A stretch of DNA of 64,000 nucleotides from NCBI RefSeq assembly GCF_028641065.1, contig NC_073401.1, positions 13,702,001-13,766,000 on the forward strand, given 5' to 3'. The DNA comes from Leucoraja erinacea (Eukaryota). Below the pieces are notes generated by a model, which searched no databases, was not told the origin of the DNA, and saw nothing but the letters and a program-made list of their open reading frames with translations. Positions 4,822 to 59,400 of this stretch are shown here, one piece after another. The number at the start of each line of letters is the position of its first letter. Position 1 is the stretch's first letter. A program made the position numbers and the translations under genes.

Positions 4822-7800
4822 CTGGAAGAGAGAGTATAAAACTAGTTAGTCTCTATATTTTTTCTCTATGGCAAGCAATGCACAAAAGTTATTAGTAACA
4901 AACCTCTCTGGAAACTAAAAAATAACTTTGTGTTGAACTTCACAAAGGCATTTTGTGCCTTTTTGTACTTTGCATGTTATAAACACAAATGAATACTAAA
5001 TCCAATATTAAATATTCAGCTTTGTACCATTAATGTATATGAAATCGTTATTGACCTTGTTTTTAAATGAACAGACATTATATTCAATTCTGTGCCACAG
5101 ATATTTATTGCTTGATTGTAAACAGGCCCTAGGGCCCATCAAGTCCTTACCGACCACTGATCACCCATTCACATTAGTTCTCTCATCCCATTTTTGCATT
5201 CACTCCCTAGGGATAATTTGCAGAGGCCAATTAATTTATAAACCCACATGTCTTTGGGATGTTTGAGGAAACAAGAGCACCCGGAGGAAACCCATGTGGT
5301 CACAGGGAGAATGCACATTCCAGACACCACAGGGTTGGGATTAAACCCGAATCTCTGGTATTGCGAGGCGTCAGCTCTATCAACACTGTGACGCTCCTCA
5401 TTTTATTGGTTGCATCTTCTGAACTTTAAATGAATGCACTAATCCATCTCTTCCAATTCAAACATGTACGACCAGATCCAGCAGACTTTGGTGTCAACTT
5501 ATGAGTTGATGAATCAGAGTTTCACTATTCCAGTGAAACAAAAATTATGAATGAAAATTAATTACGAATGAAAAACCAAAGTTCTTGGAGAAAACCCACG
5601 CGGTCATGGGGAGAATGTACAAACTCTGTACAGACAGCACCCATAGCCATGATCAAACCCGGGTCTCTGGCACTGTAAAGCATCAACTCTACCGCTGCGC
5701 CATGTGATTATTATTTTCCCCAAATAATTATTTTCATAATGCCATTATTTGATACTATATCTGAGTACTTACCCTTCCAGTGCATTTCCAGCACCTGTGG
5801 CTGAACCTGGGTTGATATAGAACTTGCTCTCCTGTTCAAAGGCCTCAAACTTGTGCGTGTGCCCAGATATTAGGATATCGACATCGAGCTGCCGTTGTAG
5901 CAGAGCCAGGCTGGTCATGTCACCCCATGGGATCACCTGGTGACCATGGATCAGTCCGATTTTGAATTGGCCCACTGTTACCACTTTCTGCTCAGGATAA
6001 TTCAAATTCTGAAATTAAGATGAGAGCGGTTACATATTTAAAATAGTCTTAGATAGATACAAAATGCTGCAATAATTTAGGGTGTCAGGCAGCATCTCTG
6101 GAGAAAATGGATAGGTGAAGTTTTGGGTCAGGACCCTTGTTCAGATAGATTTTAAAATCAACTTTACAGTTGCAGCCCTACAAGAACTGATCTTTACAAC
6201 TACAACAACACTGATTAACATGCAGAGATGCTAAGAATGTTACTCCTGCTCCACATCATCCACTGTTATTAGTAAAGGATTCACTGCCATATTTCTTTGG
6301 TCAAATACACATTTGGTGAACTACCAACAGAAAAATATATATTTTCACAGACCAAGAATTAATGTCTCCAAGGTAAACTGGGGGGCATGAGTAGAATGGT
6401 TGTCACATGTACCTCAGTACAGTAAAATTACTTTCTTGCATACAGTTCAGTAAAATTCATACTATGCATAGGCACAATTGTACTTCAGTAAAAGAGTTTA
6501 GTATAGTAGATTATATCAAGACACTGAATTGATTTATCAATGTGATACATTTATCTTCCTATTTAATGTAATTAATTGTTCAGAGATAATTAATTTCTAC
6601 AGCAGCAAAAATCATAACATTAAAACAGTATCCCTTACCTCATCAAAGTCTCCTCTGACAATATGGACATCTCCAGCCAATGTTTTAAGATAATCATAGC
6701 TCTCTTTGGTGCAAAGATTGCCTGTGCACAAAATGTGCTGGATCTTACCCGGCACCAACAGCTTCTTGAACTTGGCTGGCAACGTATTACAGCGATGAGG
6801 AATGTGAAGGTCTCCCAGTACCAGCACCAACTGCGAGAAAAGCAGAAAATAAAAGTGCTAATAAATTATTCCGCACATGCAAATTAACAGAAATATATGC
6901 CATATCTTATGATTTTATTGTAAAGTTTCATTTGTCAGCAGTCAAATAGCTATAATGAACAGAATATATAGCTTCATGAATGTAATTCAGAATTTGTTAG
7001 TAACTAAAGAGTGAATAAATCGCACAGCGCTTACAAGGCTCCATTTGGCAATGATTAAGGTCAAGTCTTTTCATCCCCTCAATTTCGAGGATAAAAGTAA
7101 AAATAGTTCAGCCAGACACAAGTTCTTTGTTAACAAAAACATGCTTCGAAATTCATGTTTACAGATCACACAATATATCTTGCATACACTTGATTAGGAA
7201 ACAGATTTTTGAAGCCAATACTTCTGAGGATGTCACAGTGGCGCAGCTGGTAGAGCTACTGCCTCACAACGCCAGACACTCGGGCTTGATTCTGACCACA
7301 GGAGCTGTCGGTGTGGAGTTTGCATGCTCTCCCTGTGACCACATGGGATTCCTCCCACCTCCCAGACATGCAGGGGTGTAGGTTAATTTCTGCTGTAAAA
7401 TTGCCCAGAGTGTGCAAGGAGTGGATGGAGAAAATGGGATAACATTGAACTCTGCAAATGGCCGATCAATGGTCCCGTGGACTTGGTCTGCCAAACGGCC
7501 TGTATCCATTCTGTATACCTCACCTAAATTAAACTACTGCAGTTTACATTTCACATCTGCCACAGGCCAGGCCCATGATTTTCTTTGTGAATAGTTTTGC
7601 ATCATGCTTACTTTAATCAACTTGTGGATATCTAGTTAGCAGTTTTAACGTTGTGTTTAAGCCATTTCCTCTCTTTCTGCAGGCCAACACAAATTCATTT
7701 CTAGTTTCAGCACTCCACAAAAGACCTTTGTCAGGATTTGTTCATCAGACAATTACACCACATGAGCTGAATGTAATAGTTATCCTTTTACAGTGAGAAT

Positions 7801-10162
7801 ATTTATAGTTGCCAGGTCAGGCTCAAGAATTTTAGCATCAGGAATCTTGATTTGGCATCTAATCTCAAACGGCTGTGATAAAAGTAGTTCCGTTTCTTAA
7901 TATGACATTTGTCCAATTTTCACGGTTGACAAAGCAGGATTTCCAAATAAAAAGGCAGTCTTTTTTTTTTAACATTGTGCTCGGTTTTAGTTTCGTCTGT
8001 AGATTAGTAACTCTCAGTTTAAAGGTGTTCAGAGTGTGTCAATGGCCAAAATTGCCAATTAATCATACTCATATTCATCCCATGGCTGTGTACATTTTAC
8101 CCGATCTGCATACAGTCCAGGCAAAAATCTAGACCATGCCTTAAAATAAGATTCTAAACCAATGGAAATTTCAGTTACAGTTATGGAAACAAGGTGCTAT
8201 CTCTATTTCCTAAATTAAGAACATTTGAAGACATGGGGAAACAGATAACAGTTGCTAAGTCTGAGCAGTCTGAAGAAGGTGTCTGCGTTTAGTCTCGCCG
8301 ATGTATAAGAGTCCACATCTTGAACAACAGATACAGTAGATGAGGTTGGAGGAGGTGCAAGTGAATCTCTGCCTAACCAGAAAGGACTGTTGGGGTCCCT
8401 GGACAGAGTCGTGGGAGGAGGTATAGCACAGGTGTCGCATCTTTTGCGGTTGCAGGGGAAGGTACCCGGGGAGCGGTTGGTCTGGGTGGGAAGGAATAAG
8501 TTGCAGTGGAAACGGTCTCAGCAGAAGGCGGAAAGGGGTGGAGATGGAAAAATGTGGCTGGTGGTGGGATCCCGTTGGAGGTGGCGGAAATTTCGGAGGC
8601 TTATTTGTTGTATGCAATGGCTGATGAGGTGGAAGGCAAGGACTAGGGGTACTCTGTCTCCATTACGACTAGGGGAGGGGGAGCAAGGGGTACCGAGGAG
8701 ATACGAGTGAAGGCCTCATCTATGATGGGAGAGGGGAACCCCCATTCCCTAAAGAATGAGGACATCTCAGATGTTCTAGTATGGAACACCTCATGTTGGG
8801 CGGACATGCGGCATGGACGGAGGAATTGGAAGTAGGGGATAGAGTCTTTGCAGGGGTGCATATCTTTCATTGATTGTTCTTTATCTCTCCACATCACCGT
8901 CTATATCTCTCATTTCCCTTATCACTAACCAGTCTGAAGGGCCTCGACCCAAAACGTCACGCATTCCTTTTCTCCAGAGATGCTGCCTGTCCCACTGAGT
9001 TACTGCAGCATTTTGTGTCTATTATCAGAATGGTGTCAGATTAGGAAAAGGGGGGGGGGGGGGGTGCAACGAGACCTGGGTGTCCTGGTACATCAGTCAC
9101 TGAAAGTAAGCATGCAGGTGCAGCAGGCAGTGAAGAAAGCAAATGACATGTTGGCCTTCAATACCAAGAGGATTTGAGTATAGGAGCAAGGAGGTCTTAC
9201 AGAAGTTTTAAAGGGCCCTGGTGAGATCACACCTGGAGTATTGTGTGCAGTTTTGGTCTCATCATTTGAGGAAGGACATTCTTGTTACTGAGGGAGTGCA
9301 GCATAGGTTCACCAGGTTAATTCCCAGGATGGTGGGACTGATATATGATGAAAGAATGGATTGACTGGGCTTATATTCACTGGAATTTAGGATGAGAGGG
9401 GAACATAGAGAAATATATAGAATTATTAAGGGATTGGACAGGCTAGAAGCAGGAAAAATGTTCCTGGTGTTGGGGGAGTCCAGAACCAGGGGTCACAGTT
9501 TAAGAATAAGGGGTCAGCCATTTAGTACTGAGATGAGAAAAAACGTTTTCACCCAGAGTTGTGAATCTGTGGAATTCTCTGCCACAGAAGGCAGTGGAGG
9601 CCAATTCGCTGGATGTATTCAAGAGAGTTGGATTTACCTCTTAGGGCTAATGGAATCGTGATATGGGGAGAAAGCCGGAACGGGGTACTGATTCTGGATT
9701 ATCATAATCATATTGAATGGCGATACTGGCTCAAAGGGCCGAATGGTTTACTCCTGCACCTATTTTCTATGTCTCCACCTGACATTATGGCCACTTATTC
9801 TGTTCTGTCTGCGCAGAATACAAATATTTCAGGATATTTAGGCATTTCATAGATGGAAGAGGCGGTTCCTGGACGATATTATAAACCATAAACATTGGTG
9901 CAGACTCACTTAAAACATACAGTGGATGTTTCTGGACGGTCTGTCCAAACATCCTCAACCCCGTCCCTCCCTCCAGCTGATGGACATCACATGACCATTC
10001 CAAGCCCACTGCAGGCCCCGAGTCACCAACCACCGGCCCCCGACCATTGGAACCTGCTGCTCCGTCACCAGCTACACGTTAGAGACTCTATGCACACCCG
10101 TTATTAAGCTGAGGGGACAAAACGCAATCAATCAATCGACCAGCCGACTACGGACTCACCAT
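4704..10162 (-). CDS. VPS29: VPS29 retromer subunit, whole spliced gene model (182 aa)
   Basis: Exons 10160-10162 (ATG only), 6639-6830, 5773-6008, 4704-4821 give 549 nt with consistent phases and GT-AG junctions. Protein [15 protein letters not shown]...GHTH...[10 protein letters not shown] is near-identical to vertebrate VPS29. The first-exon position is less certain. Confidence 0.95.
5120..5705 (-). mobile_element. Two tRNA-derived SINE copies (about 5120-5395 and 5575-5705) in VPS29 intron 3
   Basis: Both carry the GAAACCCA(T/C)G(T/C)GGTCA..GGGAGAATG core. Confidence 0.7.
5773..6008 (-). CDS. VPS29: VPS29 coding exon 3
   Basis: [30 protein letters not shown]...GHTH...NPGSATG; acceptor AG and donor GTAAGT; 236 nt. 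Confidence 0.96.
6639..6830 (-). CDS. VPS29: VPS29 coding exon 2
   Basis: [14 protein letters not shown]...VRGDFDE; acceptor CAG and donor GTAAGG; 192 nt, phase 0. Confidence 0.96.
7228..7535 (+). mobile_element. tRNA-derived SINE, near full length
   Basis: A box TGGCGCAGCTGG, B-box-like GGCTTGATTC, core GTGTGGAGTTTGCATGCTCTCCCTGTGACC. Confidence 0.8.
8255..9020 (-). mobile_element. Penelope-like element fragments (GIY-YIG and RT end on minus; terminal repeat on plus)
   Basis: [30 protein letters not shown] (GIY-YIG) and [14 protein letters not shown]; opposite-orientation terminal repeat at about 8860-9020. Confidence 0.85.
9021..9775 (+). mobile_element. CR1/HER1-type LINE 3' portion
   Basis: [37 protein letters not shown] and the 3' tail GGGCCGAATGG..CTCCTGCACCTATTTTCTATG. 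Confidence 0.9.
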
Positions 10163-10300
10163 TTTCCCAGCGTCCGAACGGGAAGCAGCTCTTCAATGAA
10201 AAGACACGGCAGCGATCGAAGGCGCGGCCAATCCGGTCGCGGTTTAGGAGCGGGTGCCGACGGCGCTGCCACCAGGCCAAAGTTAGAACAGCCGCCGTTT
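10140..10300 (-). promoter_or_regulatory. VPS29: CpG-rich putative VPS29 promoter and first exon (ATG at 10162-10160)
   Basis: Minus strand reads CTGGGAAA-ATG|GTGAGT, a consensus donor directly after ATG as expected for the ATG-only first coding exon. Local CpG enrichment, CCAAT at 10228-10232, ETS-like CGGGAAG near 10179. Confidence 0.65.
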
Positions 10301-11245
10301 TGAGTTATAAATTCAAAACACACCACACAATTCCAACAGTACTTCCAGAAACTCTAGGATTCATTGTGCACAAGCGGGGAAATTAATAAGTAGATACAAA
10401 GAAGTGCAGGTGCTGTTTGCAGAAAAATACACAAAGTGCATAAGATCAGGCAGCATCTCTGGAGTAGTTGGATAGGTGGCATTTCGGGTCGGGACCCTTC
10501 CTTCAGACTCAATGAAGAATTAGTAATTTGGCTAATTTTCTGAGGTAATGGACAATTCCTGAAGTCAATATATCTATATTTTGCATTCTGTATTTTCCCC
10601 ATTGCTCTATCAATTTTACTTGTTTGAACTGATTGTATCCATGTTTGTATCCACATCTGATGTTTGACAAGCATGAAAAACATAGCTTTTCACTGAACCT
10701 AAACTGTCTTTCATGATAGTCCACTCATTTGTTCACTGTCAGAATCATTTCATTCTCTCATTGCTCAAATCATAGCACAATGAAAGGAAGTAAAACTGCA
10801 CAATTAATACTTTCCCAGCTGCGACACTTACCTTTGATTTGGCTTTCTTCAAGCCTAGTTGCCCACAGTAGTCGCAGGATAATGGAGTGACTGGGAATTG
10901 GTAATGTAATTGTACCACTGACATGGACAATGTAACTGAGGTATTTTCCTTCTCAGTTGGAGGGAAGGTTTCCCAGCAGGGCAAAATTCACATTGGCAGT
11001 AGCTTTTATGGTGATTATAACCATGAATTTGTTACGGAGAATTTTTGAAATAGACTGTCAGTTGCTTTCATCAATTTGAAATTTATGCCCGAGCTTCAAA
11101 ATTAAAAAATGTCAAAGGTCATAAAAATTGCAATTGATTGATTTGGTGCACGGACTGGAGCAAAGATTATAGAGGATAGGATCCTCTAGGATCTTTGGAC
11201 TGAAGTAGCCACAATAAACATAAGCACATATAGTAATGCAAACTT

Positions 11246-12647: not shown

Positions 12648-15600
12648 GTAGATTTCAAAATATTTATATTAATAGCACAAGTATGTTTAATCGTGAAAAA
12701 TGCTATCTATACCGCAGTTGTTTATAGGAATATAATATATATTCTTCAGTAGCAGATTTAACCAGTCTTTTATTCAAATCACTTCGGATGCGAAAATCAT
12801 AATTTTGTTTTATGATTTATTAATTCTCTAAACCTTCCATGAGCTATATTTTAAATAAGGTATGGGGCACTCTTGGCCTTTTGGATCCGTTCTCAGAATT
12901 GTCAGGTCATATTTTATTTTTAATCACTATTAAAGATGAAATCTTAGGATTTAATTATCATATGCTTTCTTTACTTCTGATATTATAACATTGGCAGGTT
13001 TTCCCCTTTTGTATAAGGCAAAATATTTAATTAACAGTCAGCTGTATTTGCTATAATAAACGTTTCTTTGTTATCATATGTGGCTTTGTTTGTTTCATAT
13101 TACAACAACTGAGTGCTGGAAAATGAACCAGTAGATAATGTTTAATCATGAAAAATGCTATCTTTCTTTGCAGCGTTTGGAAAAGCAATCCATGCCTTAT
13201 CCAAAATTGGCGATGAGATATGGCTCGATCCTTTAGAAAATGGTGTAAGTTGTGGATATTAACAATATGTTTGTGACACTGACGGTATGGGAAGGTAATT
13301 CAAGTTGGATGAAGCATACCCTCTCCTAATGTTCTGATTTTAATCTTTTACTATAGAAACATGATGATAGAAAGTAGGTGCGATAGACCACCAGGTCCGA
13401 GACCCGCACCGCCATTCGCTCATGGTTGGACACAAACAGACACACTTGGTAGACACTGTGTAAAGCTTTGCCTCCCCTCTATACCTCTACACCCCTCTCC
13501 ACTACATCGTGTCTCCTGGGGGAAAAAACCGGTACAAATTCTAGATTCCTCTCCGCCCCAATCCAGTAAATCGATTGTAGATCACTCAAAACAAAATATA
13601 GGTCCATATCCCTGCCCTGGACAGATTGGACCATTTTTTAGTCTTAAATATGCCCTTTCTGCTTCCATTCTCACCATAAATTAACCCCCTCTGGGTGAAA
13701 AGTCTTGCAAATCTTTGGCTTATTCTGAAACTATGTTAGTTCTAGCCTTCATTGGGAACTCCTGGTGCATCCACCCGATGGTCACGATCTTGTTTTTCAA
13801 TGAGATCGCCTCTCATTGATTAAACTGCCGTAGAGTCACATCAACCTTGTCGAAGATGTCAATCCCCTCAAATTAATCTTTCCTTCGCTGCTGCCTCCAG
13901 GGCCATCCTTTCAGGAGATTTGCAAACTGTATATTCTTTCATAACTGTAACATGCAGCAAGCTCACTCAATCCCCCTAGCATAAAGGCCAAAAGTCCATT
14001 GGCTTCCTAATTGCTTGCTGCACAATTTCAGTGTCATTACTAAAATCCCTTAATTCTAAAAAATTCTAATTGCAAAATGGTTATTCACATCAAAGTGAAG
14101 AACTGAACTTCACCATGAGTCAGGACATTAAAATAAGAAATATGGGGCAGCAGTGTCGCAGCTGGTAGAGCTGCTGCTTGACAGTGCCAGAGACCTAGTT
14201 TCGATCCTGACCTCGAGTGATGTCTGAGCGGAGTTTGCATGTTTTTGCTGTGACCATGAGGGTTTCCTCCAGGTGCACCATTTTTCCTCTACATCCCAAT
14301 CATGTACGGGTTTGTAGGTTAATTAGCCTCTAAATTGCCCTTAGTGTGTAAGGAGTGGATGAGAAAATGGAATAACAGAACGTGAGAACAAGTGATTGAT
14401 GGCGTGGACTCGGTGGGCTAATGGGGCAGTTTCCATGCTGTGCCTCTTTAAAAGAAACAAAACATTTTTTTTTTTTAAAGATCTTTTTTGATTAGGCATT
14501 TTTGATCATTTAAATATTTACAGCATCACTTCCTTAAATAGGAATCATTTAATTTTCTGCACCTTGAATATGAATCTCTTTACTTATAGTACCTGTATAT
14601 TCTTTGATTTAACTTGTCAAAGTGTTTTGAATATTTTTCAGCTATATTCTAGAATAGTTAATCATTTAATGTTTTGTTTTGCAGCTTGCACTGAGATCGG
14701 TTAATTCTTCTGGATCGGCATATGCTTGCTTTTTATTCTCTCCCCTCTTCTTCCTGCATTACAGCAGGGGTAACAAGCAGCAACAGGAAACCTCTGAAGC
14801 TGAGGTTGTACCCCTCAACTGTAAGATGGCAATTAAGGTATAGTTTGGGTTTTCCGAAGCTAAAGGCTACAACATAGAAATATAGAAAATAGGTGCAGTA
14901 GTAGGCCGTTCGGTCCTTCGAGCCAGATGATCATGGCTGATCATCCAAAATCAGTACCCCATTCCTGCTTTTCCCCCATATCCCTTGATTCTGTTAGCAC
15001 CAAGAGCTATATCTAACTCTCTCTTGAAAACATCCAGTGAATTGTCCTCCACTGCCTTGTGACAGAGAATCCCTTATTCTTAAACTGTGACCCCTGGTTC
15101 TGGACTCCCCCAACATTGGGAACATTTTTCCTGCATCTAGCCTGTCCAATCCCATAAGAATTTTACGTTTCTATAAAATATACTCTTATCCTTCTAAATT
15201 CCAGTGAATATAAGCTCATTCGGTCCATTCTTTCATCATATGTCTGTCCCGCCAACCCGGGAATTAACCTGGTGAACCTATGCTGCACTCTCTCAATAGC
15301 AAGAATGTCCTTCCTTAAATTAGGAGACCAAAACTGCACACAATAATCCAGGTGTGGTGACTCCAGGGCCCTGTACAACTGCAGTGGGCCCATTTTGCTC
15401 CTATAACCAAATCCTCTCGCTATGAAGCCCATCATGCTTTGCTTTCTTCACTGCCTGCTGTACCTGCATGCTTACTTTTAGTGACTGATGTACAAGGACA
15501 CCCAGGTCTTGTTTCACCTCCCCTTTTCTTAATCTGACACCATTCTGATAATAAACACAAAATGCTGGAGTAACTCAGCGGGACAGGCAGCGTCACTGGA

Positions 15601-18600
15601 GAGAAGGAATGGGTGATGTTTCGGGTCAGGATTCTTCTTCAGACTGATGTCAGGGGAGTGGGCGGGACAGAGATAGAATGTAGTCAGACTTCAACAGTAA
15701 GACTGGTTGGAGAACTGGGAAGGGGGAGGGGTTGGAGAGAGAGGGAAAGTAAGGGCTATTTGAAGTTAGAGAAGTCAATGTTTATACCGCTGGGGTGTAA
15801 ACTACCCAAGCGTAATATGAGGTGCTGTTCCTCCAATTTGTGCTGGGCCTCACTGGAGGAGTGGAGGAGGCCCAGGACAGAAAAGTCAGATTGGTATTGG
15901 GAGGGGGAGTTAAAGTGCTGAGCAACCGGGTGATCAGGTAGATTAAGGCGGACTGAGTGGCGGTGTTCAGCAAAATAATTGCCAAGCCTGCGCTTGGTCT
16001 GGTCGATGTACAGAAGTTGACACCTGGAACAGCAGATACAGTAGATGAGGTTGGACGAGGTGCAAGTGAACCTCTGCTTCACCTGAAACTGCTGTCGGGG
16101 TCCTTGGATGGAGTCAAGGGGGGCGGTAAAGGGACGGGTGTTGCATCTCCTGCGGTTGCAGGGGAAAGTACCTGGGGATGGGGTGGGAAGGGACAAATTG
16201 ACCAGGGAGTTGCGGAGGGAACGGTCTCTGCAGAAAGCAAAAAAGGGGAAGATGGGAAGATGTGGCCAGTAGTGGGATCCCGTTGGAGGTGGCGAAGATG
16301 TTGGAGGATTATATGCAGTATGCGGCAGCTGAAGCGGTGAAAGGTGAGGACAAAGGGGACACTGTCATGGTTACAAATGGGAAGGAGGGGGAGCAAGAGC
16401 AGAGCTGCGGGATATTGAGGAGATCCTAGTGAGAGCCTCATCTATAATGGAAGAAGGGAACCCCCATTTCCTAAAGAATGAGGACATCTCCGATGCCCTG
16501 GTATGGGAAAACCTGGGCGCAGATGCGGCGTAGACGGAGGAATTGGTAGGGGATAGAATCTTTACAGGATGCAGGGTGGGAAGAAGTGTAGTCTAGATAG
16601 CTATGGGAGTCAATGGGTTTGTAGTAGATGTCGGTCAATAGTCTGCCTCCTGTGATGGAGATGGTGAGATCCAGAAACGGTAGAGAGATGTCGGAGATGC
16701 TCCAAGTGAATTTGAGTGCAGGATGGAAATTGGTCATGATGTTGATGAAGTCAGTGAGTTCTGCATGAGTGCAGGTGGTACCATTGATGCAGTCGTCAAT
16801 GTAGCGGAAGTCGAGTTCAGGGATAGGCCCAGTGTACGTCTGGAACAGTGATTGTTCCACGTAGCCTACAAAGGCCGGCATAGCTAGGGCCCATGCGAGT
16901 GCCCATAGCTACGCCTTTCATTTGAAGGAAGTGGGAGGAGTCGAAGGATAAGTAGTTGACGATAAGGACCAGCTCTGCCAAGCAGAGGAGAGTATTAGTA
17001 GACGGAAATTGGCTGGTTCTGCGGTTGAGGAAGAAACGGAGGGCTTTAAGACCTTCCTGGTGGGAGATGGAGGTATAGAGTGACTGGACATCCATAGTAA
17101 AGATGATGGAGTGGGGGCCTGGAAAACAGATATCAATGTAGATTAAGTTCTTTCCTAAACATTCTGATAATAATCTGCTTTCTTGTTTTTACCACCAAAG
17201 TGGATAACCTCACATTTATCCACATTGTACTGCATCTGCCCTGCATCTGCCCACTCACGCAACCTATCCAAGTTACCCTGCAGCCTCATAGCATCCTCCT
17301 CGCAGCTCACACTGCCACCCAACTTTATGTAATCCGCAAACTTGGAGAATTTACTTTTAATTCCTTTCTCTAAATCGTTGATACATATTGTAAATAACTG
17401 GGGTCCCAGCACTGAGGATCTAATTCCTTTTCTTTGCTTCCTGCCAACCAGTCTATTCATGTCAATACCCTATCCCCTTTTACCCTCACATGTTTAGCAG
17501 GGGTGACTAAATAATGTTCCTGCTGAAATAGAATTTAAACGAGATTTGTGTAAGTTTCTCAGTACACCCTGATTACAATGCGTTGAGGCAAGTTGGTAAG
17601 TGCCTAGCAATGTTATGTTAATATTGTTTCCTTCGTGTTAGCTGACGGGCAACATGTTCATGTTGGTTTAATGTATGGTCTGTAATTTATAATGTCCTAT
17701 GATCTTTTATTCTGTTTAGGTTGAATAATGATCACAAAAGATTATTACCACACTAAATCTTGGTATGAAATATGGCATTGGCTGAATTTTGAAAAAAAAT
17801 CTTTATGTAACCCCTTATTTTTAAGTTTGCAAACATAATATCATGGTGTCTAAATTCAAACTATAATATGAATTTTGACAGTAAATCTGCATATGTTTTT
17901 TTTCCGCAAATCACCTCCCCACCCCCCGGCAGATTACTTGGGTTTTTTTGATATTGGATTTCATCAATTTGCTGTTTTATCTTTTGCGCTACATATTATG
18001 TTAATTTTCAACAGAAGCTGAGAATTGAATAACTTCCCATTTAAAAATAATACTAAATTGGCACTTTGAAATACTATTTATGCCCCAAATAATGTTATTT
18101 ATCTTTACAGTTTCATTTCTTAACAATTTTGTGCAAGTTGCAATGTGACATTATTAATTAGAGCTTTTAAAATAAAAATCATTGAATTATTTGAACAAAA
18201 GATTTGATTTAAGTGCAAATCTCATGATCATGTTTTTTAGCTCCTTTTAAGAACATTCAGAAAATTGTGTTTGTTATATATGCTCTCACCTGTGTAGTTA
18301 GTGTTAGTGATATGACTGGATCTTGAATTTAATCTTTTGGAATGAGAAATATCCTATGTTTATGATTAAGAGGTCATTGTTTTTATTACTATTGTAACAG
18401 ACTTCTTGGCCTTTTTTGTTCTTTTACTCAGTATGTTCTTCCAATGTTTCGATGCCTAACTACATTAGAGAGGAATGTGGAGAAATGCAAGATTTATGTA
18501 AATTCACAGGACTGCCGAGTTGTTTTTCAGTTCTGCTGCAAACACGGTACAAAAACAAATTTACTAAATGTATCTTGAGATTTCATGGTGCCATTTAAAA

Positions 18601-27600: not shown

Positions 27601-30600
27601 CCTATGGCAATAAGAGGTAAGAAATTGTGGATAAACCTTTGATTATTATAATCCAGTTAACTGAAATATCCTTTGATGCTTTATTTCCCCAACTATTATT
27701 TCCTTTTGTTTGTGTAATGCAGCATTTGTAGTTCCTGGTTTCTACTGTTGTTTTGTTCTGTTTAACTGTTAATATGTTCACCCTCTATTGTATAGGAAAT
27801 GTTTTGATTAATATTGTTACTTGTGATCCTGAAAACCTTGCTTGATCAAATCATGCTATACACGATTTGATTGATTCAATCAAAATAGTATGATTTAGAC
27901 ACAATGCTGGAGTAACTCAGCAGGTTAGGCAGCATCTCTGGATAGAAGGAATTGGTGACGTTTCATGTTGAGACCCTTCTTCAGACTGAAATTCAGGGGA
28001 GAGGGGGACAGAGATAAGGAAGTGGATTTTTAGAAATCCACTCCTCTGTACATTTGGTACATTATTTTCCTGACTTTATTAAAATTGTTGACCAATCTGA
28101 CCTTTTTTAAAAAATCTGACCGTTGCCCAGCTGCTGACGTTACAATAACAGTGACATTTATTCTTCTGGTAGAAATTTTCTTTATGATTTCAAAAATCCA
28201 CTCCTCTATAAATTTGGTGAATTATTTCCTGAGATATTTACTAATATTTATCACCAAACTGACATTTTTTTAAAAATAACGGTTGCCCAGCTGCTGACCT
28301 CACAATGCCTTTCCTTGTGGCCCCCCCCTCCCCAACGCCGCTCTGGATTAATGCAGCTGCTGTCAACGCGCATGCGTAGTTTTCCACGAGGTACGTTAGC
28401 CCACACCCCCGTTCTTCAAAACGCGCAGAAAGAGGCGTCGCTCACAGCTGCTCGCTCACAGCCGGAGGCCACCGGCTTGCTTCTGAATCCTCTCCGTCTC
28501 CCCCGCCCGATCGTAGAACATGGTGGCGGTAGCCGTTATTGTCGCGCGGGGCACGCAATGAAAAGGTGGCACTGGCGGCCATTACTCCCTCTATGAGAAA
28601 CCCGTGATTCCTCCGTTGATCGCAGGGACACGGGGAATCGTAACGCGAAAGCTGCAGAGACTCTCCACGCCGCCCGATGTCCAGAGAGCTGCCGATGCTC
28701 GCTGCCCTTTCGCAGTCGGCCCCGTCCGAGCCGCCCGCTCGCCGAGTTCAAGTCCGCCCTCACCTTCTCTCCCCATCCTCCTCCCCACTACCCCCTCTCC
28801 CGCTCCCTACCTCCTCCTCTCCCTTCCTCCCCTCCCCTCCGCCCCCCCTCCTCTACCCCCCCCCCCCCTCATCTCCCGCCCTTTCCTCTCCCCCCCGTCC
28901 CTCCCTCCCAACCCCTCCCCACTCTTCCCCCTACCCATCGCCCTACCTCTCCCTCCGTTCCCTCTCCTCCCCACCCCCTCTTTTCCCCCCCACCTCTTCC
29001 CCCTTTCCTCTCCTTCCTCTCCCCTCCCTCTCTGTCTCCGCCCCTCTCTGTCTCTGGGGTCAGGAAGCATCTGTCGAGAACATAGACAGACTTCTTCAGA
29101 CTGCTGAAATCTGCTCCACTTTGAAATGTAAATTAACTGAGGTTACAATCTCGTATTCCAAAGAAAACAACCCCTAGTTCATCCAGGCTTCCTTCATAAC
29201 TATAACTTTCTTATCCAAACAACACTTTCATAAATTTTCTCTGTGTCATCCAGTAATGATAGCCCACAACTGTATGCAACATTCAAACTGTGGCCTATCC
29301 AGTTTTATGTATAGTTCAAACATTATCGTCTAGACAGACACATCAGTGAATCAAATATTATCTTGCACTAAATGTTGAACCCTTTATGTGCACTGTGATT
29401 GTAATCATGTGTAGTCTTGTCTTTGACTGGATAGCATGCAAACCAAAGCTTTTTACTGTACCTCAGTACATGTGACAATAATAAACTGAACTATAACATT
29501 TATCTACCAGCAGTGATGATCAGCCAAACATTCAGACTGAAGATGTGAATGAATTGATTAATGAAGAAATTAATTCACCAGCAATACCCATAGTAACCAC
29601 TACACAAAAAGATGGTCGGTCCCAAATTCAGAAAAGAAAGGACCACTGCAGGAGCCCCAGATTTACAGAAGATCTAAATCAAAATGTCAAGATATCCTCT
29701 GTGTTTAGCAATTACTTAGCGGATGGAGTTGAAAATGAAATGGTGCCTGGAACACCACCAAATAAAAAGGTAGAGTATTGGTTTTTTTAAATGAGATGTT
29801 TTTGTTGAAATAAACTTAACATTGAAATGCAGATTAAAATAATGTACTTTGGACTATTTAGCATTATACTGCAGGTAACCTCTACATTTGATTTAGTTTC
29901 ATGTTTCCCTAACAGAACCATGCTTCCTTTCTCTCATGTATTAGCCTCCACAGGGGGGTAGGGGTGGGTATTTAGGTCTCACAGATGGATAGTCACATTG
30001 GGAGCACTGAATGCAGTAAACTAGGTTTGGGGAGGTACATGTGAAACTTCACCTAACCCAGAAAAGCAAGCTGCTGGGGTCCCATGATAGATATAAACAT
30101 GATCTGGTGATGTTCAACATGAGCATCTCCCGCTGGGAAACTCATTGCAAGAGGCCGTCATATCTAATCACACTTAAACACTCAGCTCTGTACTGACAAG
30201 GAGCAGATGACTGCATGCTGGCAATAGAATCACTTAGTAGGAACACTGCAGTGGATCTAATCATATGCATCGTACTCGGTAATGAGCGTAGTCCCCGATT
30301 TCCCAATGGGTAGTTGTAGTAGGAGAGGGTGCGGATTAGGGAAAAAGCAGAGGATGCCCATTCCCAATCACTAGGAACTGGAGACAGGGGTTAGGACAGA
30401 CTCCTGCACGATTACAGGGAAAACAGTGGCAGCCTCTACATGTAATTGAAATATTACATTATTTCTCCTACTTTTCCTAAGCAGTACATGAAGGTAGGAA
30501 TAAAAAGTTTCCTTGCAGGTTAGAAATATGGCTGATGATCTGCACTTTGCCACAGGTGGGGCAGATGGTACACGATGAGGTAGCTCAATAGATTGCTTAG

Positions 30601-39100: not shown

Positions 39101-42100
39101 TATTTTATTGATTATACAGGAAAAATTAGTTAAACACTTTTAGCAAGTTGTGAGATTTCAAGAGTGAATCCAAGGGAAAACGCAGAAATCACAAATCCTC
39201 CCCAGCTACTATTTTCCTTTATGGTCATTGTGTCCTTGTATGTTGTGGAAATTGCTGAACCAGTGTTTTATGGTTTCTTGAGGGAGCAAGGAGATTGCAC
39301 ATTCCATTTCACAGCACAGTTAAAGCATATAAAGGTTAGCCCTGAACTATCTAACCAACAAATCTTGATCAAATGACTGATAGCTTGATATTTCTGAGAA
39401 ATAGCACCAGGTCAAAAGTGACTGGATTTGATTTTTAAGAAAATAGTTGTAATTTAAAAAAAGTACAGATATTTAGCCAAAATATATTCCTGGCAAAAGA
39501 CTTTTGAGCTCCTAAAGATATAAAGAAACGTGGGGGGTGAGAGCGAAAGTGGTTGACTGAACCAAACAGTCGAGTTTGCTAAAGGCCAAGTGTATCATAA
39601 CACAAAACTGACAGTATCAAATAGCCACGAAAGGCTGGAGTAACTCAGCGGGTCAGGCAGCATCTCTGGAGAAAAGGAATAGGTGACGTTTTGGGTCGAG
39701 ATACTTCTTCAGACAGAGTCAGGAGAAAGGGAAAGGAGAGACATAGATAGTGATAGAGAGATATAGAACAAATGTATCAAATAGCCACTGCTTTCACAGC
39801 CAACTCAAATGAAAAACAGGATTAAAATGATGTGATCTAAAATCATTGTTCAAAGGTATCATATGAAAATATGCACAACAACAAGTGAATAACTCCATAC
39901 GAATTTTTACATTATCCAATCTCTTAAAAAAATGCTATTGCCAACTTCTGCTTAGGCAGTATGCCCTGACACAAAACTGACAGTATCAAATATCACTTCT
40001 CTTTCACAGCCAACTTGAACAAACATGGTTAAAATAATTAAATCTAAAAGCATTGTTCAACAATAATATGGGGTGGGAGATTGCAAACTTCACGTGGTCC
40101 ACCCTGTTTCGACGAATGCAATCAATCTGGTGTGCACAATCAAATAAGATCAAATAGAACACGTTGTCCTACAACTTTAGGCTGTGCACGGCATTATCAA
40201 GAAGAACAACAATAAACTTATGCACAACAAGCGAACAGCTCAATGAGAATTTTGACATTAAACAATCTTTCCTTAAAAAAACCCCAATTTAACCATGATC
40301 CAAATCAATATTCAACAAGGTCATCTGGACACTGCCCCAACACGAATACAAAACATACATTAAAATATCAGTACATTAAGCAGGATGCAGTTATACAATT
40401 GATCTAATTGATCCAAACAATGCCCCATATCTATTAATAAAATGTGATTTGTACAGACAATATTATCTGCCTGAAGCCAAGGAGAATAAATTGGTTTTTT
40501 GGAGAATAGTCCTATGTAAACTCTCGGTAACCTCAGATTTAATAGTGTTTAAGTGACATCATGAAAAAATTAGGCCACTTTAGTTTCTTACAAAACGGCT
40601 AATTCTACAATGTAGCAGGATACACTTTTAAAGGGATTTAACTTTAACCTTTGGTTGCTTTACAGTTTTCACTGAATAGGAAATGACAAGCATTTTGAAA
40701 ATGTATTGCATTTACACAAAAGATACCTTTAGCTTCTTTAGCTCTTGCAAAATCATGTAGTCAGGCATGTTATCAAATAATCCATCTGTTGCTGTCAAGA
40801 TGATATCTCCTATTTGGACATCAATGGAAGTGCTGTCAGCAACATCAGGGCTGTGTGGACAAATGCATTAAAGTTTTCAGGCCATCAGAAATAAATGCAA
40901 ATCGGGTAACATTTATTCCGACAATTAATGGAATTAACATAATGGCAACACTTACAATCATTTAAATTGTTTGTCATAGCCACATTATAAACAACCCTTG
41001 TTTTCAAAGCACAGCAGACTTGAAATTGCTGATTCTCTAGCAGGAAGACTATTAGGCATTTTTTGCTTATACTGTATTCAAGTAAATGTGTGGGCTTCAG
41101 AGGCCGAGCCAGCATTTAATAGTCCATCCTAATTGCCCTTGCGAAGGGCATGGTGAGCTGTCCTCTTGAACTGTTGCAGCCTTGGAATGTGAGTATTGAG
41201 TAGGGAATTTCAGGAATTTGACTCAGCAGAGCAGCAACAATATGTTTCCATGTCAGGATGGAGTGCGACTTAGAGAACTCCCAGTTGGTGGTGCTCCCAT
41301 ATTTTTGGTGCGCTTGCCCTTCTAGCTAGTAGAGGATGTGGGTTTGGAAGGTGTAAATGGTACACACTGCTACATCTGTGCATCAGAAGTGGAGTGAGTG
41401 GTTTTGGATGGGGTGCCTGTGCTGCTATGTCCTGTATGGAGCAGTGCTTTGTGTTTTTGAGCGCTCCCTGCAAGAGAAGAGTATTCCATCACACTTGAGC
41501 CTTGTAGATGGGGGATAGGCTCTGGGGAACTAGGAAGTGAGTTGTTCGCTGCAGGATTCCTATCTTCTGGTCTTGTCGCCACATCAAGTATATGGATCCT
41601 CCAGTTCAATTTCTGGTCAATAATAATACCTAGGATGTTGATAGTGGGAGATTCACTCTTGGTGGCGCCGAATGATGGCTGCCTCACCAACGGTCTGTCT
41701 CATCTTTTTCCTTCTTTGTTGATTTTAGTTGTTGAATGTATGTTTTAGTGTACCTTTAGATTTGAATTATGTGGGGTGTGGGGGAGGGAACTTTTTTAAT
41801 CTCTTTCCCCAACGGAGACGCGGCTTTTATCCGTATCGTATCTCCGTCCGCACTGCAGCCTAACATCATAGGAGCTGGCGACATCTCGCTGAGGATCGAC
41901 CTCGGTAGCTCCAACTGCGGAAGCCTGCTGACTTAACATCGCAGAGCTGGTGGTCCCTTTGCCAGGGATCAACCTGGGAAGCTCCAAGCGTGGGAGCCTG
42001 CGGACGTAAAATTGTGGAGCTCGGGGTCCCTGTTTAGGGACCGACTTCAGGAGCTCCAACCACGGGAGCTTCGACCGCCCCGACACGGGAGCTTCGATCG

Positions 42101-53419: not shown

Positions 53420-56400
53420 GTAGGTTATTGATTTTGCTCAAGATGCCAGCATCTGTAGTATCTTGTGTCTCCAGATTTATGGCTTTATTTCATTTCATTG
53501 GCGTTCACATTTCATAAAGTCATACAGCGTCGAGACAGGCACTTGAGCCCAACTTGTCCATGTCGTCCAAGATGCCCCATTTGCCCGCGTTTGGCCCATA
53601 TCCTACTAAACCTTTCCTCTCCGGGTACCTGTCCAAATGTTTATTAAATGTTGTTTTGTACCTGCAGCCTTCATGACTCGACATTGAGTTCAACCATTGT
53701 AGATAATCAGCGTTTCTAGTCTTTGTTTTTCACCATGTCGAGAGTTCACCGTCACTGAATTCACTGACTGACCGAGGGAACTGATGATTCTCTGGTTTAG
53801 GTTTATTATTGTTATGTCTATTGAGGTACAGTGAAAATATTTATTTTTGCATGCTATCCAATCAGATCAGATAATATATGCAATCAAGTCAAACTCAACT
53901 ACCATAGGGCGAGCAAAGGGGAAGGTGTAGACTGTAGAATATAGTTCCCAGATTTGTAGGGTATCAGATCCATAAACAAATGGATGCAACCCAATCAGAT
54001 CGGATACGAATGTAATCAAGTCATTCTCAACTACAATAGGTAGATCAAAGGGGGATGTACAGAGTCCAGAATCTTGTTCCCAGCATTGTAAGGCATCAGA
54101 TCCATAAACAAATGTCCTCAATGGGGTAAAGGTGAATCGGACAGTACCCTGGCTTATATAAGTGTTCAGAAGCCTGATAATAGAACGGATGCTGTTCTTG
54201 AGTCTGGTGGTACTCTCCATGTATGGACCTTTTGTTATCCACCCTTTTATTATAATATTTAATTTGTTCAAATGTTGCCTGATCAGCTTACTTTTACTTT
54301 TTGATAAATTTCCATGAATTCTTTGACGATAGGAGAGGTGATATATAGGTATGTTTAGATTTCCAAAAGTACACTTGTACATATAATGTAGATTCTATAT
54401 TTAATTTCGTGAAATATTAAGTTCTATAATATGCATTTGCTGTGCAAGGACAATTGTTATATTGGTCATAGATGCAAGGATGGATGGATTCATGTAATTA
54501 TAAAAAAAATCATTGCATCAGCTATAACGTTTGCCTTGGTGTAAGAGGATTATTTGTTCAAGATTTGGTGCATTTGAGCATATAGTTAGGCTAATATTGT
54601 ATTGCATTCCCAAGAGTGTTCTGCGTTTTCTGTAGTGCTCATTTTTGGATGGGCTATTAAACCAGCACTCTGCCTATTTTCAGATAAACACAATTGATCG
54701 TAGAGAATTGCAGTATGGGTGTCCAGGCCAATGCTTATCCGTAATGCTACACTATAAGAACTAATTAACTAGTTGCTTAACTCATAAAGGTCATTGTTAA
54801 ATTAACACTGATATATTTTTGTTATTTCAGTTCACACTTTGTGTGTCTGCAATTTACTGGTTGAACAATGTGATATAAATTGTTGCTGTGATCCAGACTG
54901 TACAGCTTCTGATGTCTCTACCTTTACAACATGCGATGTTCATATTGTCACGTAAGTTAAACCGCAAAATAGACTAATTTATCTGTGGCCTAAACTTGAA
55001 TTTATTGAATGTCTACTTGTATCCAATAAATACGTCATAAGTCAGAAACAGGTGAGTTGATCATGGGGAACAAGGATATGGCGGACCAATTGAATAACTA
55101 CTTTGGTTCCGTCTTCACTAAGGAAGACATAAATAATCTGCGGGAAATAGCAGGGGACCGCGGGCCAAAGGAATTGGAGGAATTGAGTGAAATCCAGGTT
55201 AGCCGGGAAGTGGTGTTGGGTAAATTGAATGGATTAAAGGCCGATAAATCCCCAGGGCCAGATGGGCTGCATCCCAGAGTACTTAAGGAAGTAGCTCCAG
55301 AAATAGTGGATGCATTAGTAATAATCTTTCAAAACTCTTTAGATTCTGGAGTAGTTCCTGAGGATTGGCGGGTAGCAAACGTAACCCCACTTTTTAAGAA
55401 GGGAGGGAGAGAGAAAACGGGGAATTACAGACCAGTTAGTCTAACATTGGTAGTGGGGAAACTGCTAGAGTCAGTTATCAAAGATGGGATAGCAGCACAT
55501 TTGGAAAGTGGTGAAATCATTGGACAAAGTCAGCATGGATTTACGAAAGGTAAATCATGTCTGACGAATCTTATAGAATTTTTCGAGGATGTAACTAGTA
55601 GCGTGGATAGGGGAGAACCAGTGGATGTGGTGTATCTGGACTTCCAGAAGGCTTTCGACAAGGTCCCACATAAGGGATTAGTATACAAACTTAAAGCACA
55701 TGGCATTGGGGATTCAGTATTGATGTGGATAGAGAACTGGCTGGCAAACAGGAAGCAAAGAGTAGGAGTAAACGGGTCCTTTTAACAATGGCAGGCAGTG
55801 ACTAGTGGGGTACCGCAAGGCTCAGTGCTGGGACCCCAGCTATGTACAATATATATTAATGATCTGGATGAGGGAATTGAAGGCAATATCTCCAAGTTTG
55901 CAGATGACACTAAGCTGGGGGCAGTGTTAGCTGTGAGGAGGATGCTAGAAGACTGCAAGGTGACTTGGATAGGCTGGGTGAGTGGGCAAATGTTTGGCAG
56001 ATGCAGTATAATGTGGATAAATGTGAGGTTATCCATTTTGGTGGCAAAAACAGGAAAGCAGACTATTATCTCAATGGTGGCCGACTAGGAAAAGGGGAGA
56101 TGCAGCGAGACCTGGGTGTCATGGTACACCAGTCATTGAAAGTAGGCATGCAGGTGCAGCAGGCAGTGAAGAAAGCGAATGGTATGTTAGCTTTCATAGC
56201 AAAAGGATTTGAGTATAGGAGCAGGGAGGTTCTACTGCAGTTGTACAGGGTCTTGGTGAGACCACACCTGGAGTATTGCGTACAGTTTTGGTCTCCAAAT
56301 CTGAGGAAGGACATTATTGCCATAGAGGGAATGCAGAGAAGGTTCACCAGACTGATTCCTGGGATGTCAGGACTGTCTTATGAAGAAAGACTGGATAGAC

Positions 56401-59400
56401 TTGGTTTATACTCTCTAGAATTTAGGAGATTGAGAGGGGATCTTATAGAAACTTACAAAATTCTTTAGGGGTTGGACAGGCTAGATGCAGGAAGATTGCT
56501 CCCGATGTTGGGGAAGTCCAGGACAAGGGGTCACAGCTTAAGGATAAGGGGGAAATCCTTTAAAACCGAGATGAGAAGAACTTTTTTCACACAGAGAGTG
56601 GTGAATCTCTGGAACTCTCTGCCACAGAGGGTAGTTGAGGCCAGTCCATTGGCTATATTTAAGAGGGAGTTAGATGTGGCCCTTGTGGCTAAGGGGGTCA
56701 GAGGTTATGGAGAGAAGGCAGGTACGGGATACTGAGTTGGATGATCAGCCATGATCATATTGAATGGCGGTGCAGGCTCGAAGGGCCGAATGGCCTACTC
56801 CTGCACCTAATTTCTATGTTTCTATGTAATACAGCATATCTTGCCAACACAAAACGTAATTTCAATTATTTTAATGATTGTATAATTTCTAACAGGCTAT
56901 TTTGAAATCAGTAGCAATGAATTGACCAAAGATACTCATGGAGATGTCTGTGTGTGCCTTTGCCCCATTTTCTGACATCTAATGTTTTCTTGTTTCTCCA
57001 AGTATTTTGCTCTTCAGACTTTCTTTTGTTATTTTGTTTCCTTTTCCTCTTTGCATTTGTTTCTTAATACATTTTCTTTCTTTCGCTTTCCATGTCAATA
57101 TCATGCGTTAATTTATTATCCTTTTTGGAGTTTCCGAGAATTGATATGTCATTCAAAAGAAAACTGATCTTTTTTTCATATATCAGATGTGAAATTAAGT
57201 ATCTCAGTTTATTATCACCTGCAATACTCCTTCCCAGGTCCTTTGGCACTTTTTTGTGGCCATGAACAGGTTTGTTATGGACGATGAATTATTTTCTCCC
57301 TCATTGATGTAGTTTCAGCATTAAATGAGAAGTCCAAACTTAAAGGCAGGCGAAAGCAGGTTAATACTAATAATATATTTACGATCTGGTACAGATAAAG
57401 TGTTAGAATTAAAGAAGCACGTAGATTTTGAAAGCTTATAGGATTAGAGATGTGCGGCATAGAACTATTTGAAAATGACATATAAAAATTCAGACATTGT
57501 TGTAACAAGTTATCCATCATAGAGTTTGACAGCAAATACTCGGATCAATATAAATTATAGCCAGAATAGCCAGGAGTCTACTGATATAGTGGAAGGTATG
57601 GATTAGGATTAGGCTGAGTGACCTGAGGCTAGTCACAGATGAAGCAATGATTAGAACATGATTGTAATTTTAGACTAAGAGCATTCCACCAAGAACATTC
57701 TGTTCCTATCTTTGATTATCACACTGCTTATTTCAATAGACAATAGGTGCAGGAGAAGGCCATTCGGCCCTTCGAGCCAGCACCGCCATTCAATGTGATC
57801 ATGGCTGATCATCCTCAATTAGTACCCCGTTCCTGCCTTCTCCCCATATCCCCTGACTCCGCTATCTTTAAGAGCCCTATCTAGCTCTCTCTTGAAAGTA
57901 TCCAGAGAACCGGCCTCCACTGCCCTCTGAGGCAGAGAATTCCACAGACTCACAACTCTCACAACTCATCCTCATCTACGTTCTAAATGGCTTACCCCTT
58001 ATTCTTAAATTGTGGCCCCTGGTTCTGGACTCCCCCAACATCGGGAACATGTTTCCTACCTCTAGCGTGTCCAAATCCTTAATAATCTTATATGTTCCAA
58101 TAAGATCCCCTCTCATCCTTCTAAACTCCAGAGTATACAAGCCCAGCCGCTCCATTCTCTCAGCATATGACAGTCCCGCCATCCCGGGAATTAACTTTGT
58201 AAACGTAGGCTGCACACCCTCAATAGCACGCATGTCCTTCCTCAAATTAGGGGACCAAAACTGCACACAATACTCCAGGTGTGGTTTCACTTCGGCCCTG
58301 TACAACTGCAGAAGGACCTCTTTGCTCCTATACTCAACTCCTCTTGTTATGAAAGCCAACATGCCGTTCGCTTTCTTCACTGCCTGCTGTACCTGCATGC
58401 TTACTTTCATTGATTGTTGAACAAAGACCCCCAGATCCTGTTGTACTTCCCCTTTTCCCAACTTGACACTATTTAGATAATAATCTGCCTTCCTGTTTTT
58501 GCTACCAAAGTGGGAGCACATTTATCCACATTAAACTGCATCTGCCATGCATCTGCCCACTCACCCTACCTGTCCAAGTCACCCTGCATTCACACTGCCA
58601 CCCAGCTTTGTGTCATCTGCAAATTTGCTTATGTTACTTTGAATCCCTTCATCTAAATCATTGATATATATTGTAAATAGCTGTGGTCCCAGCACCGAGC
58701 CTTGCGGTAACTCTTTGAGGTTGAGCCAGGCTGCTTTTACCTTGCTCTGTTTGATTGTTTCAACCATCTCGTGCAAAACTATTATTATTATTTTATCTTG
58801 AAATGAGACCCAGATGACCCATCACCTTTTTTGTTTTCTGATTGACTCCTTCTTGTGTTCATATCTCTTGCCTTTCCTGGACTTCAGAAAAAATCTTTAG
58901 TACTTTATCCTGTGCATTGTCCTGTGCATTGTCATAGTCTGTCATACATAAACAAGTAGGAGAGCAGAATTGCTGCCACCAGTGCATCATGAGCTTTGCA
59001 CCAGGTTTTGAGATCAATGCAGAATGATGTGATGATCATGTCAAAATTAATTGTCCCTATACTAGGGAGGTTCCATCTAGCAATGTACAGATACATTGGG
59101 GGGAGGGAGGGGGGGGAGGGGGGACTAAAGGGAAGAATGATTCATTATGAATGTTGAAAAGACTGCAATAAATTCTGGTGAAAGTTTCTTTTGGAAGCTT
59201 TGTATTCTATTGATCAGGCAACAGTGTTTTTTTCATTTCAAGTTTTTGCAGTACTTGGTAACCTGTCATTATCAAACTACATCCGCATTTTTAATTCCCA
59301 TTTATTCCATAAGGGTTAAAACAAATATAAACATCATTTGATAATTACTTATATCAACCTTTCATGATTTCCATGCAGAGGAGACAGAGAACTTTGCAAG

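Follow-up and report, generated by a model that had tools for sequence, protein, structure and literature searches.

Two Penelope 3' ends within one 64,000-nucleotide stretch of DNA (the window) are joined to CR1 at the same CR1 codons, raising the question of whether Penelope selected this site twice or whether a ready-made junction was copied. The earlier note offered two answers, a preference of Penelope for this CR1 site and amplification of a Penelope::CR1 chimera. We found that both junctions on which it relied are real. At locus 1 (+ strand), the junction lies between positions 9020 and 9021, with CAGCATTTTGTGTCT at 9006-9020 leading into ATTATCAGAATGG from 9021. At locus 2 (- strand), it lies between 15553 and 15552, with CAGCATTTTGTGTTT at 15567-15553 leading into ATTATCAGAATGG from 15552. 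An assembly artefact was ruled out, as the two loci differ by 14% and independent sequencing runs (those with a word share below 0.2 being left out) contain up to 73% of the words sampled from 7500-11000.

Confirming the proposal that a Penelope element had inserted into a CR1 at locus 2, both CR1 halves are present there and the element is flanked by the 14-bp duplication TTATTATCAGAATG (17173-17160 and 15554-15541). The 5' part of this CR1 (17160..17416, - strand), which comprises the RT core, is 84% identical to 55821-56076 and gave an RVT_1 match with an E value of 2.4e-5, which falls short of the curated cut-off. Its end forms the upstream copy of the duplication (17160..17173), which carries a rare A that we consider below. 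The Penelope element itself (15553..17159, - strand), a 5'-truncated copy of 1.6 kb that we refer to as family A, comprises a putative RT, linker, GIY-YIG, and UTR, with a stop codon at 15758-15756 and the start of the hammerhead-like motif at 15646. The downstream copy of the duplication (15541..15554) and the CR1 3' half (14875..15552), both on the - strand, complete the locus.

Locus 1 begins at its left breakpoint with a stub of 14 nt (8266..8279, + strand) from the start of a Penelope hammerhead. This stub matches the locus-2 element at 13 of 13 positions (E value of 0.042) and lies at most 4 nt from the breakpoint. An inverted fragment of a family B Penelope ORF follows (8283..8854, - strand), whose translation contains a putative RT thumb, a CX4CxxC linker, and the start of GIY-YIG; read from 8854 to 8283, it is 75.8% identical to the locus-2 ORF over 591 nt. 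The next segment (8860..9020, + strand) consists of a family B 3' UTR, a hammerhead-like motif starting at 8930, and a tail-less 3' end. This segment is 80.8% identical over 151 nt to a copy at 39771-39623, whereas its alignment with locus 2 covers just 92 nt. The CR1 3' half (9021..9775, + strand) then starts at the junction and runs as far as the CR1 tail; it is 79 to 80% identical to intact CR1 copies and 86% identical to locus 2. We looked for the CR1 5' half in the vicinity of locus 1 and found none, and we found no target duplication around the whole block or around its Penelope part. The CR1 5' half and the upstream duplication were likely lost through a deletion, which we assume to have accompanied or followed an inverted insertion. 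As separate observations, the juxtaposition of the stub and the inverted ORF piece (8266-8283) could be the trace of a lost mini-copy or of a template switch, and the DNA directly 3' of locus 1 (9950-10310) is GC- and CpG-rich with a CCAAT-like box, a possible gene start.

Translations at both loci contain a GIY-YIG motif with two cysteines between GIY and YIG, and the locus-2 element is 44% identical over 156 amino acids (E value of 5e-40) to P0126, a protein bearing PF01541; a direct Pfam scan of the decayed Penelope copy gave no GIY-YIG match. We also observed RT-like motifs upstream of the endonuclease when reading across frameshifts, and a Pfam scan of two pieces returned no match. The CX4CxxC linker is complete at locus 1, and its last cysteine is mutated at locus 2. 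In the sections of PMC8557442 available to us, a CX2-5CxxC linker between RT and EN characterizes the Neptune and Nematis clades and is proposed to mediate target bias. A CTGAAGA-stem-GAAAC core was seen by eye in the Penelope copies, and Rfam at the gathering score yielded no matches; minimal hammerhead motifs are described in the accessible text of PMC4209133. The closest named proteins are from Rhinoraja longicauda and Chiloscyllium punctatum, which makes a cartilaginous fish the likely host. Two Rhinoraja gene models, P0123 and P0130 (receptor-transporting protein 3-like and neuromedin-U receptor 1), contain pieces of the element's endonuclease, probably as annotation artefacts or through exonisation. 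The LINE at both loci, which we take to be CR1, has 120 homologues, including a Chiloscyllium RT-domain protein, and TTTCTATG-type tails.

We compared the Penelope 3' ends in the window. All five tail-less copies (6055, 9020, 15553, 27897, and 39623) end at a GTGTCT register followed by A, so that the Penelope side of each junction is uninformative about how the two loci came to agree. A sixth copy (11833) continues into a tail, and the loose-end consensus in four public runs, although mixed (agreement of about 0.4), shows the same tail. The common GTGTCT end bears the signature of internal initiation as PMC11167929 describes it in vitro for the anole element, whose endonuclease cleavage favours ATT. 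The copies at 6055, 15553, and 39623 show a duplication (8, 14, and 15 bp among the three), and in each of them the base departing from GTGTCT is that of the target, so that the nick is likely to sit a few bases further upstream, with the primer imperfectly paired with the RNA. This suggests that an imperfectly paired target end primes, in contrast to the anole element, for which initiation in vitro was reported to be non-homologous. At the CR1 junctions, locus 2 retains the target TT (GTGT/TTATT, the slash marking the point of joining) and locus 1 has the element's TC (GTGTC/TATT). If pairing was imperfect in this way, the nicks at loci 1 and 2 would differ by at least 1 nt. The claim that both elements join CR1 at the identical nucleotide thus stands for the RNA register and fails for the nick positions that these junctions imply.

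Several short copies of the Penelope type share features with the two loci. Mini Penelope copies lie on the - strand in non-CR1 DNA at 6044..6145 (element at 6145-6055) and 27886..28016 (element at 28016-27897), and a short family-B-like copy with a 15-bp duplication lies at 39612..39771, also on the - strand (element at 39771-39623). A fixed tail-less 3' end, an optional tail of 30 to 40 nt, variable duplications, and an inverted partner are all found among copies in the window. We further noted that short Penelope-type copies at 302-397, 6055-6145, and 10447-10509 start at the hammerhead start or a few bases from it, that the copy at 27897 also lies within a short local tandem duplication, and that, at 39600-40000 (- strand), 26 nt from the 3' junction of the 39623 copy are repeated about 370 nt upstream in addition to the 15-bp duplication.

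Sequences 5' of the hammerhead differ between the two loci, as the earlier note had observed, and this difference proved to be one between lineages. The Penelope ORFs of loci 1 and 2 differ by 18.7, 14.4, and 27.3% at codon positions 1, 2, and 3; the excess at third positions indicates two diverged active lineages, masters A and B. Consistent with this, the locus-1 UTR resembles the copy at 39623 rather than locus 2. In contrast, the two CR1 halves differ evenly across codon positions (12.4, 15.0, and 11.3%), indicating a single decaying lineage. These flat differences and the identity of 86% between the two halves, relative to 80 to 82% to other copies, uphold the assignment of both loci to the same CR1 subfamily. 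Over 671 columns compared with two other CR1s, 33 changes are private to locus 1, 38 are private to locus 2, and 11 are shared. Judging from sequence, the 11 shared changes would be subfamily characters except for an L-to-Q replacement, the sole non-conservative one. None of the substitutions private to locus 2 at 15529, 15514, 15479, 15592, and 15595 occurs in locus 1. Elsewhere in the window, two CR1 3' ends (26402-26695 and 56534-56827), 30 kb apart and in opposite orientation, are 97 to 98% alike and represent either a CR1 subfamily of much younger age or a conversion tract, and a 138-nt inverted repeat with 93% complementarity is formed by 47428-47565 and 48728-48865, 1.2 kb apart.

The exceptional L-to-Q replacement reflects a CTG-to-CAG change 7 nt from the junction that is present at locus 1, at locus 2, and in both copies of the locus-2 duplication. 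In four of four public runs, the same base reads T in 95 to 96% of the depth, leaving at most 5% for the A variant. Among the 66 homologous proteins that cover the codon (a further 55 homologue rows that do not cover it were left out), 48 have L and none has Q. These frequencies rule out CAG as a general CR1 subfamily character; CAG copies may constitute a small sub-lineage of CR1 of up to 5%. We first took the rare A as a sign of common descent, but its position so close to the junction led us to look for a functional reason.

A candidate reason emerged from folding of locus 2, in which the CR1 target pairs with the end of the element's UTR and the start of its hammerhead. The target matches the reverse complement of these element sequences at 13 of 15 bases, revealing a motif downstream of the insertion point that is the reverse complement of the element's hammerhead start (CAGTCTGA). 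We then scored the core 8-mer, TCAGACTG, on the three non-CR1 targets. The targets of the copies at 6055 (TAAGACTA, 6051-6044), 27897 (TCATACTA, 27893-27886), and 39623 (TGATACTG, 39619-39612) each match it at 6 of 8 positions, all at +4, with the common pattern TnAKACTR. The CR1 target, reading TCAGAATG, matches at 7 of 8 positions at +5, at 9025..9032 (+ strand; the rare A within its CAG codon) in locus 1 and at 15548-15541 (- strand) in locus 2. All seven mismatches to the 8-mer across these targets fall on C/G positions, and motif positions 1, 3, 5, and 7 are invariant over the four distinct targets (T, A, A, and T). The rare CR1 base is motif position 3 and thus one of these invariant bases.

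A match of 6 of 8 at +4 is reached by 0.45 to 0.49% of T/A or YT/AW sites, and no random triple among 200,000 reached 6 of 8 at any common offset. Without reference to the element, the three non-CR1 targets are identical at 6 of 10 columns from +3 to +12, for which P is about 5e-5 against random YT/AW triples and 8e-5 with an AT-rich null (500,000 random triples per null). A regular-expression pattern, fitted on the same four distinct targets in this one window, occurs at 13 of its 2870 YT/AW sites, which include five Penelope junctions and one duplicated copy. An intact CR1 copy has 37 YTAW sites on both strands, and together with the scarcity of sites with the downstream pattern, this makes the agreement between the two loci more than chance. 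At two sites, the 8-mer demonstrably belongs to the target: locus 2 has it in each copy of the duplication and within the CR1 frame, and the site at 39623 has it in the duplication and in the 26-nt upstream repeat. At 6055 and 27897, it lies mostly outside the duplication. As controls, two uninterrupted CR1 copies of another subfamily, at 55811..56827 (+ strand) and 57736..58709 (- strand), read TCTCAATG and TCTAAATA at the homologous site and lack the motif.

The motif does not accompany every Penelope-type end. None of five other ends in our comparison (four bearing tails and one of another family) fits it, the best reaching 3 of 8 at +4 or +5. Among the element-into-element joints, 12 of 206 were listed and 9 distinct ones were read by hand; the 8-mer occurs at +4 in one of these nine, and most of the remaining joints listed have CTATCC-like microhomology. 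A Penelope end is joined to CR1 at 15478-15487 in 4 joints among the 15 of 144 listed, with one or two contigs per run, indicating that other CR1 positions are also targeted. The site next to these joints does not match the fitted pattern and needs a relaxed centre to reach 6 of 8. As an observation in its own right, this second cluster of Penelope-to-CR1 joints (15478-15491) lies about 65 to 75 nt from the studied site and appears in several runs. The available portions of PMC8557442, PMC3846280, PMC4209133, PMC12910113, and bioRxiv 10.64898/2026.07.22.740005, along with full-text searches, report Penelope target biases toward AT-rich DNA, ATT, and microsatellites and one rDNA case; within that scope, neither a downstream motif of this kind nor a Penelope hot spot in CR1 appears.

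We moderately favor the explanation that two Penelope families arrived at one CR1 position by independent insertion at a preferred degenerate target, YT/AWW(N)TnAKAmTR, that is predicted to be read by protein. The GIY-YIG endonuclease and its zinc-finger linker would bind the 8-mer in DNA, and the bottom strand would be nicked about 5 to 7 nt upstream of it. The freed 3' end would then pair imperfectly with the RNA at GUCU/AU, where reverse transcription would begin internally. Priming of this type would set the Penelope side of each junction and leave target bases at the mismatches, and a second nick 4 to 12 nt further along would yield the target duplication. Ordinary CR1 (TCTGAATG) is without the invariant A, so that copies with the CTG-to-CAG change would be near-optimal targets and thus targeted. 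Since three non-CR1 insertions have the motif and ordinary CR1 does not have the invariant A, the preference is not for CR1. Of the earlier suggestion of independent targeting, the independence is borne out by two masters, different nick offsets, and a motif-internal base as the only private change in common; CR1 as the preferred target is not. The shared position likely reflects a sequence preference rather than targeting of CR1 as such or an amplified chimera.

The same motif might instead be read by pairing with the element's RNA or cDNA, which we regard as unlikely. CAGUCUGA at the 5' edge of the hammerhead would capture the top strand of the target, and a second RNA segment 90 nt downstream would prime on the bottom strand, so that the RNA splints both target strands. 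The match of the CR1 target to the reverse complement of the family A UTR end and hammerhead start, at 13 of 15, is the best of 8,736 T/A sites, two of which reach 13, and the target matches the family B reverse complement at 9 of 10; however, among 1,500 random sites, 19 equal or exceed 13 of 15 against at least one terminal 15-mer, indicating a real but moderate link. Similarly, just two overlapping 8-mers among 822 terminal ones, both located here, fit all three non-CR1 targets, but 57 of 65,536 possible 8-mers do so, and one match among 822 is not by itself surprising. Pairing would also account for the centre base A (antisense form) in four of four targets and for short copies at 302, 6145, and 10509 that start at the same hammerhead edge. 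Yet the match stops at 8 nt at 6055 and 27897, and initiation occurs without homology to the cut DNA in the consulted part of Frangieh et al. (PMC11167929). Protein read-out is favored over pairing because all seven mismatches affect strong G-C pairs, which pairing should protect. The constant spacing, the position of the motif largely outside the duplication at two sites, and the proposed role of the linker in target bias (PMC8557442, in the sections available) likewise favor recognition by protein.

Three further explanations were weighed. Local copying, a case that the earlier note had named as refuting its reading and that we consider about as unlikely as pairing, would have carried the locus-2 block from hammerhead to CR1 tail (or the CR1 alone) over to locus 1 shortly after the insertion, either through template switching or as a CR1-primed retrocopy of read-through RNA, with family B then inserting or recombining at the inherited junction. 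The loci are 6.5 kb apart, inverted, and of the same CR1 subfamily, at 86% identity against 80 to 82% to other copies; they have the rare A in common, and locus 1 begins at a hammerhead stub without the CR1 5' half. Two rare CAG-type CR1 copies at this distance, both carrying Penelope, remain a coincidence under our preferred reading. Nevertheless, the loci share no flanking DNA past the CR1 tail and no private change except the motif-internal one, and they differ at the junction (TC versus TT). Local copying also needs three events, of which the last amounts to re-targeting, and leaves the motif at three non-CR1 sites unexplained. Amplification of a Penelope::CR1 chimera by means of the CR1 3' end, which the earlier note had entertained, is in our estimate very improbable, although locus 1 does end at the natural CR1 tail without a 5' half. 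Two different Penelope families, hence two masters, argue against it more strongly than do the contig pieces; among the 32 longest listed, out of 354,371 in four runs, 31 consist of CR1 alone or of Penelope alone. The one piece that crosses the junction (run X15, record 22) has 26 Penelope-side letters and 9 gaps, under the 31-letter rule. This test is weak and speaks only against very large numbers, as the window's own junctions are also unlisted and contigs break in repeats; read depth in the four-run comparison is no copy number, and some joints are uncounted. The A variant, at no more than 5% of depth, also speaks against an amplified chimera. Chance, equally improbable in our view, would combine a fixed Penelope end with TAT microhomology in AT-rich DNA of a genome dense in both repeats. 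The fixed end and the CT/A microhomology are real, the CR1 site is one of nine AT-rich YTAW sites in a 1-kb CR1, and the window was chosen for looking odd, but chance explains neither the six common columns in three unrelated targets nor the common rare A.

Searches of other collections added little to these comparisons. Scans for the junction pattern gave no matches in viral contigs or prokaryote genomes, collections with little host DNA in which blanks are uninformative, and all nine pattern matches in metagenome contigs, a collection similarly poor in host DNA, were rejected as chance matches without Penelope or CR1 flanks. A search with the junction-spanning peptide found one protein, a CR1-only product, and none among representatives.

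An 8-mer at a constant offset, in a family so abundant among vertebrates, would be new beside the reported biases in Penelope target choice and joining. Protein read-out of the motif would provide a concrete substrate for the zinc-finger linker. With RNA read-out, the element would be a natural self-guided retrotransposon and the hammerhead, or ribozyme, region would gain a role in integration; RNA guidance, if true, would explain the motif, the short hammerhead-edge copies, and the repeated insertions at the CAG-variant CR1 site. More generally, identical nested junctions need not imply common ancestry.

Tx1L targets another transposon in an element-specific manner by means of an APE endonuclease. 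The skate element is, like Tx1L, nested in another mobile element, but true element-specific targeting is a feature of Tx1L. Strict site specificity of the R2/Tx1 type was ruled out here, as three of the five tail-less copies lie outside CR1, the loose-end consensus is mixed, and at most one of the 32 contig pieces listed crosses the junction. The Penelope copy inside CR1 also recalls Pen2 of Adineta vaga, a retroelement nested in a non-LTR element, which differs, in the text of PMC3846280 at hand, in being a single nested event with no motif. As with the spike-moss rDNA families in the available sections of PMC8557442, related Penelope families have inserted at almost one and the same point in a multicopy target; those families are strictly site specific for a conserved gene, whereas the target here is degenerate and CR1 is incidental to it. 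The skate element most resembles in composition the Neptune-type EN+ PLEs of Craig et al. (2021; PMC8557442, as far as its accessible text goes), with a putative RT, a CX2-5CxxC linker, a C-terminal GIY-YIG with two cysteines, a pLTR with a hammerhead-like motif, an inverted 5'-truncated partner, variable duplications, and an optional tail. Unlike the microsatellite bias of linker-bearing clades in those same sections, its likely preference is for a degenerate 8-mer that is non-repetitive and stands at a constant offset. With PAc, the Poseidon element of Anolis carolinensis (Frangieh et al. 2024; PMC11167929, in the part available), it would share internal initiation, which gives fixed 3' ends whether or not a tail follows, and cleavage at ATT, the CR1 site here being GATTATTATC; homing into its own pLTR is proposed for PAc in that text. 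The skate element differs in having a linker, which Poseidon does not have, and in the 3 to 4 nt of microhomology and the target bases retained at mismatches, whereas the consulted part of PMC11167929 describes for PAc no downstream motif and initiation non-homologous to the cut DNA.
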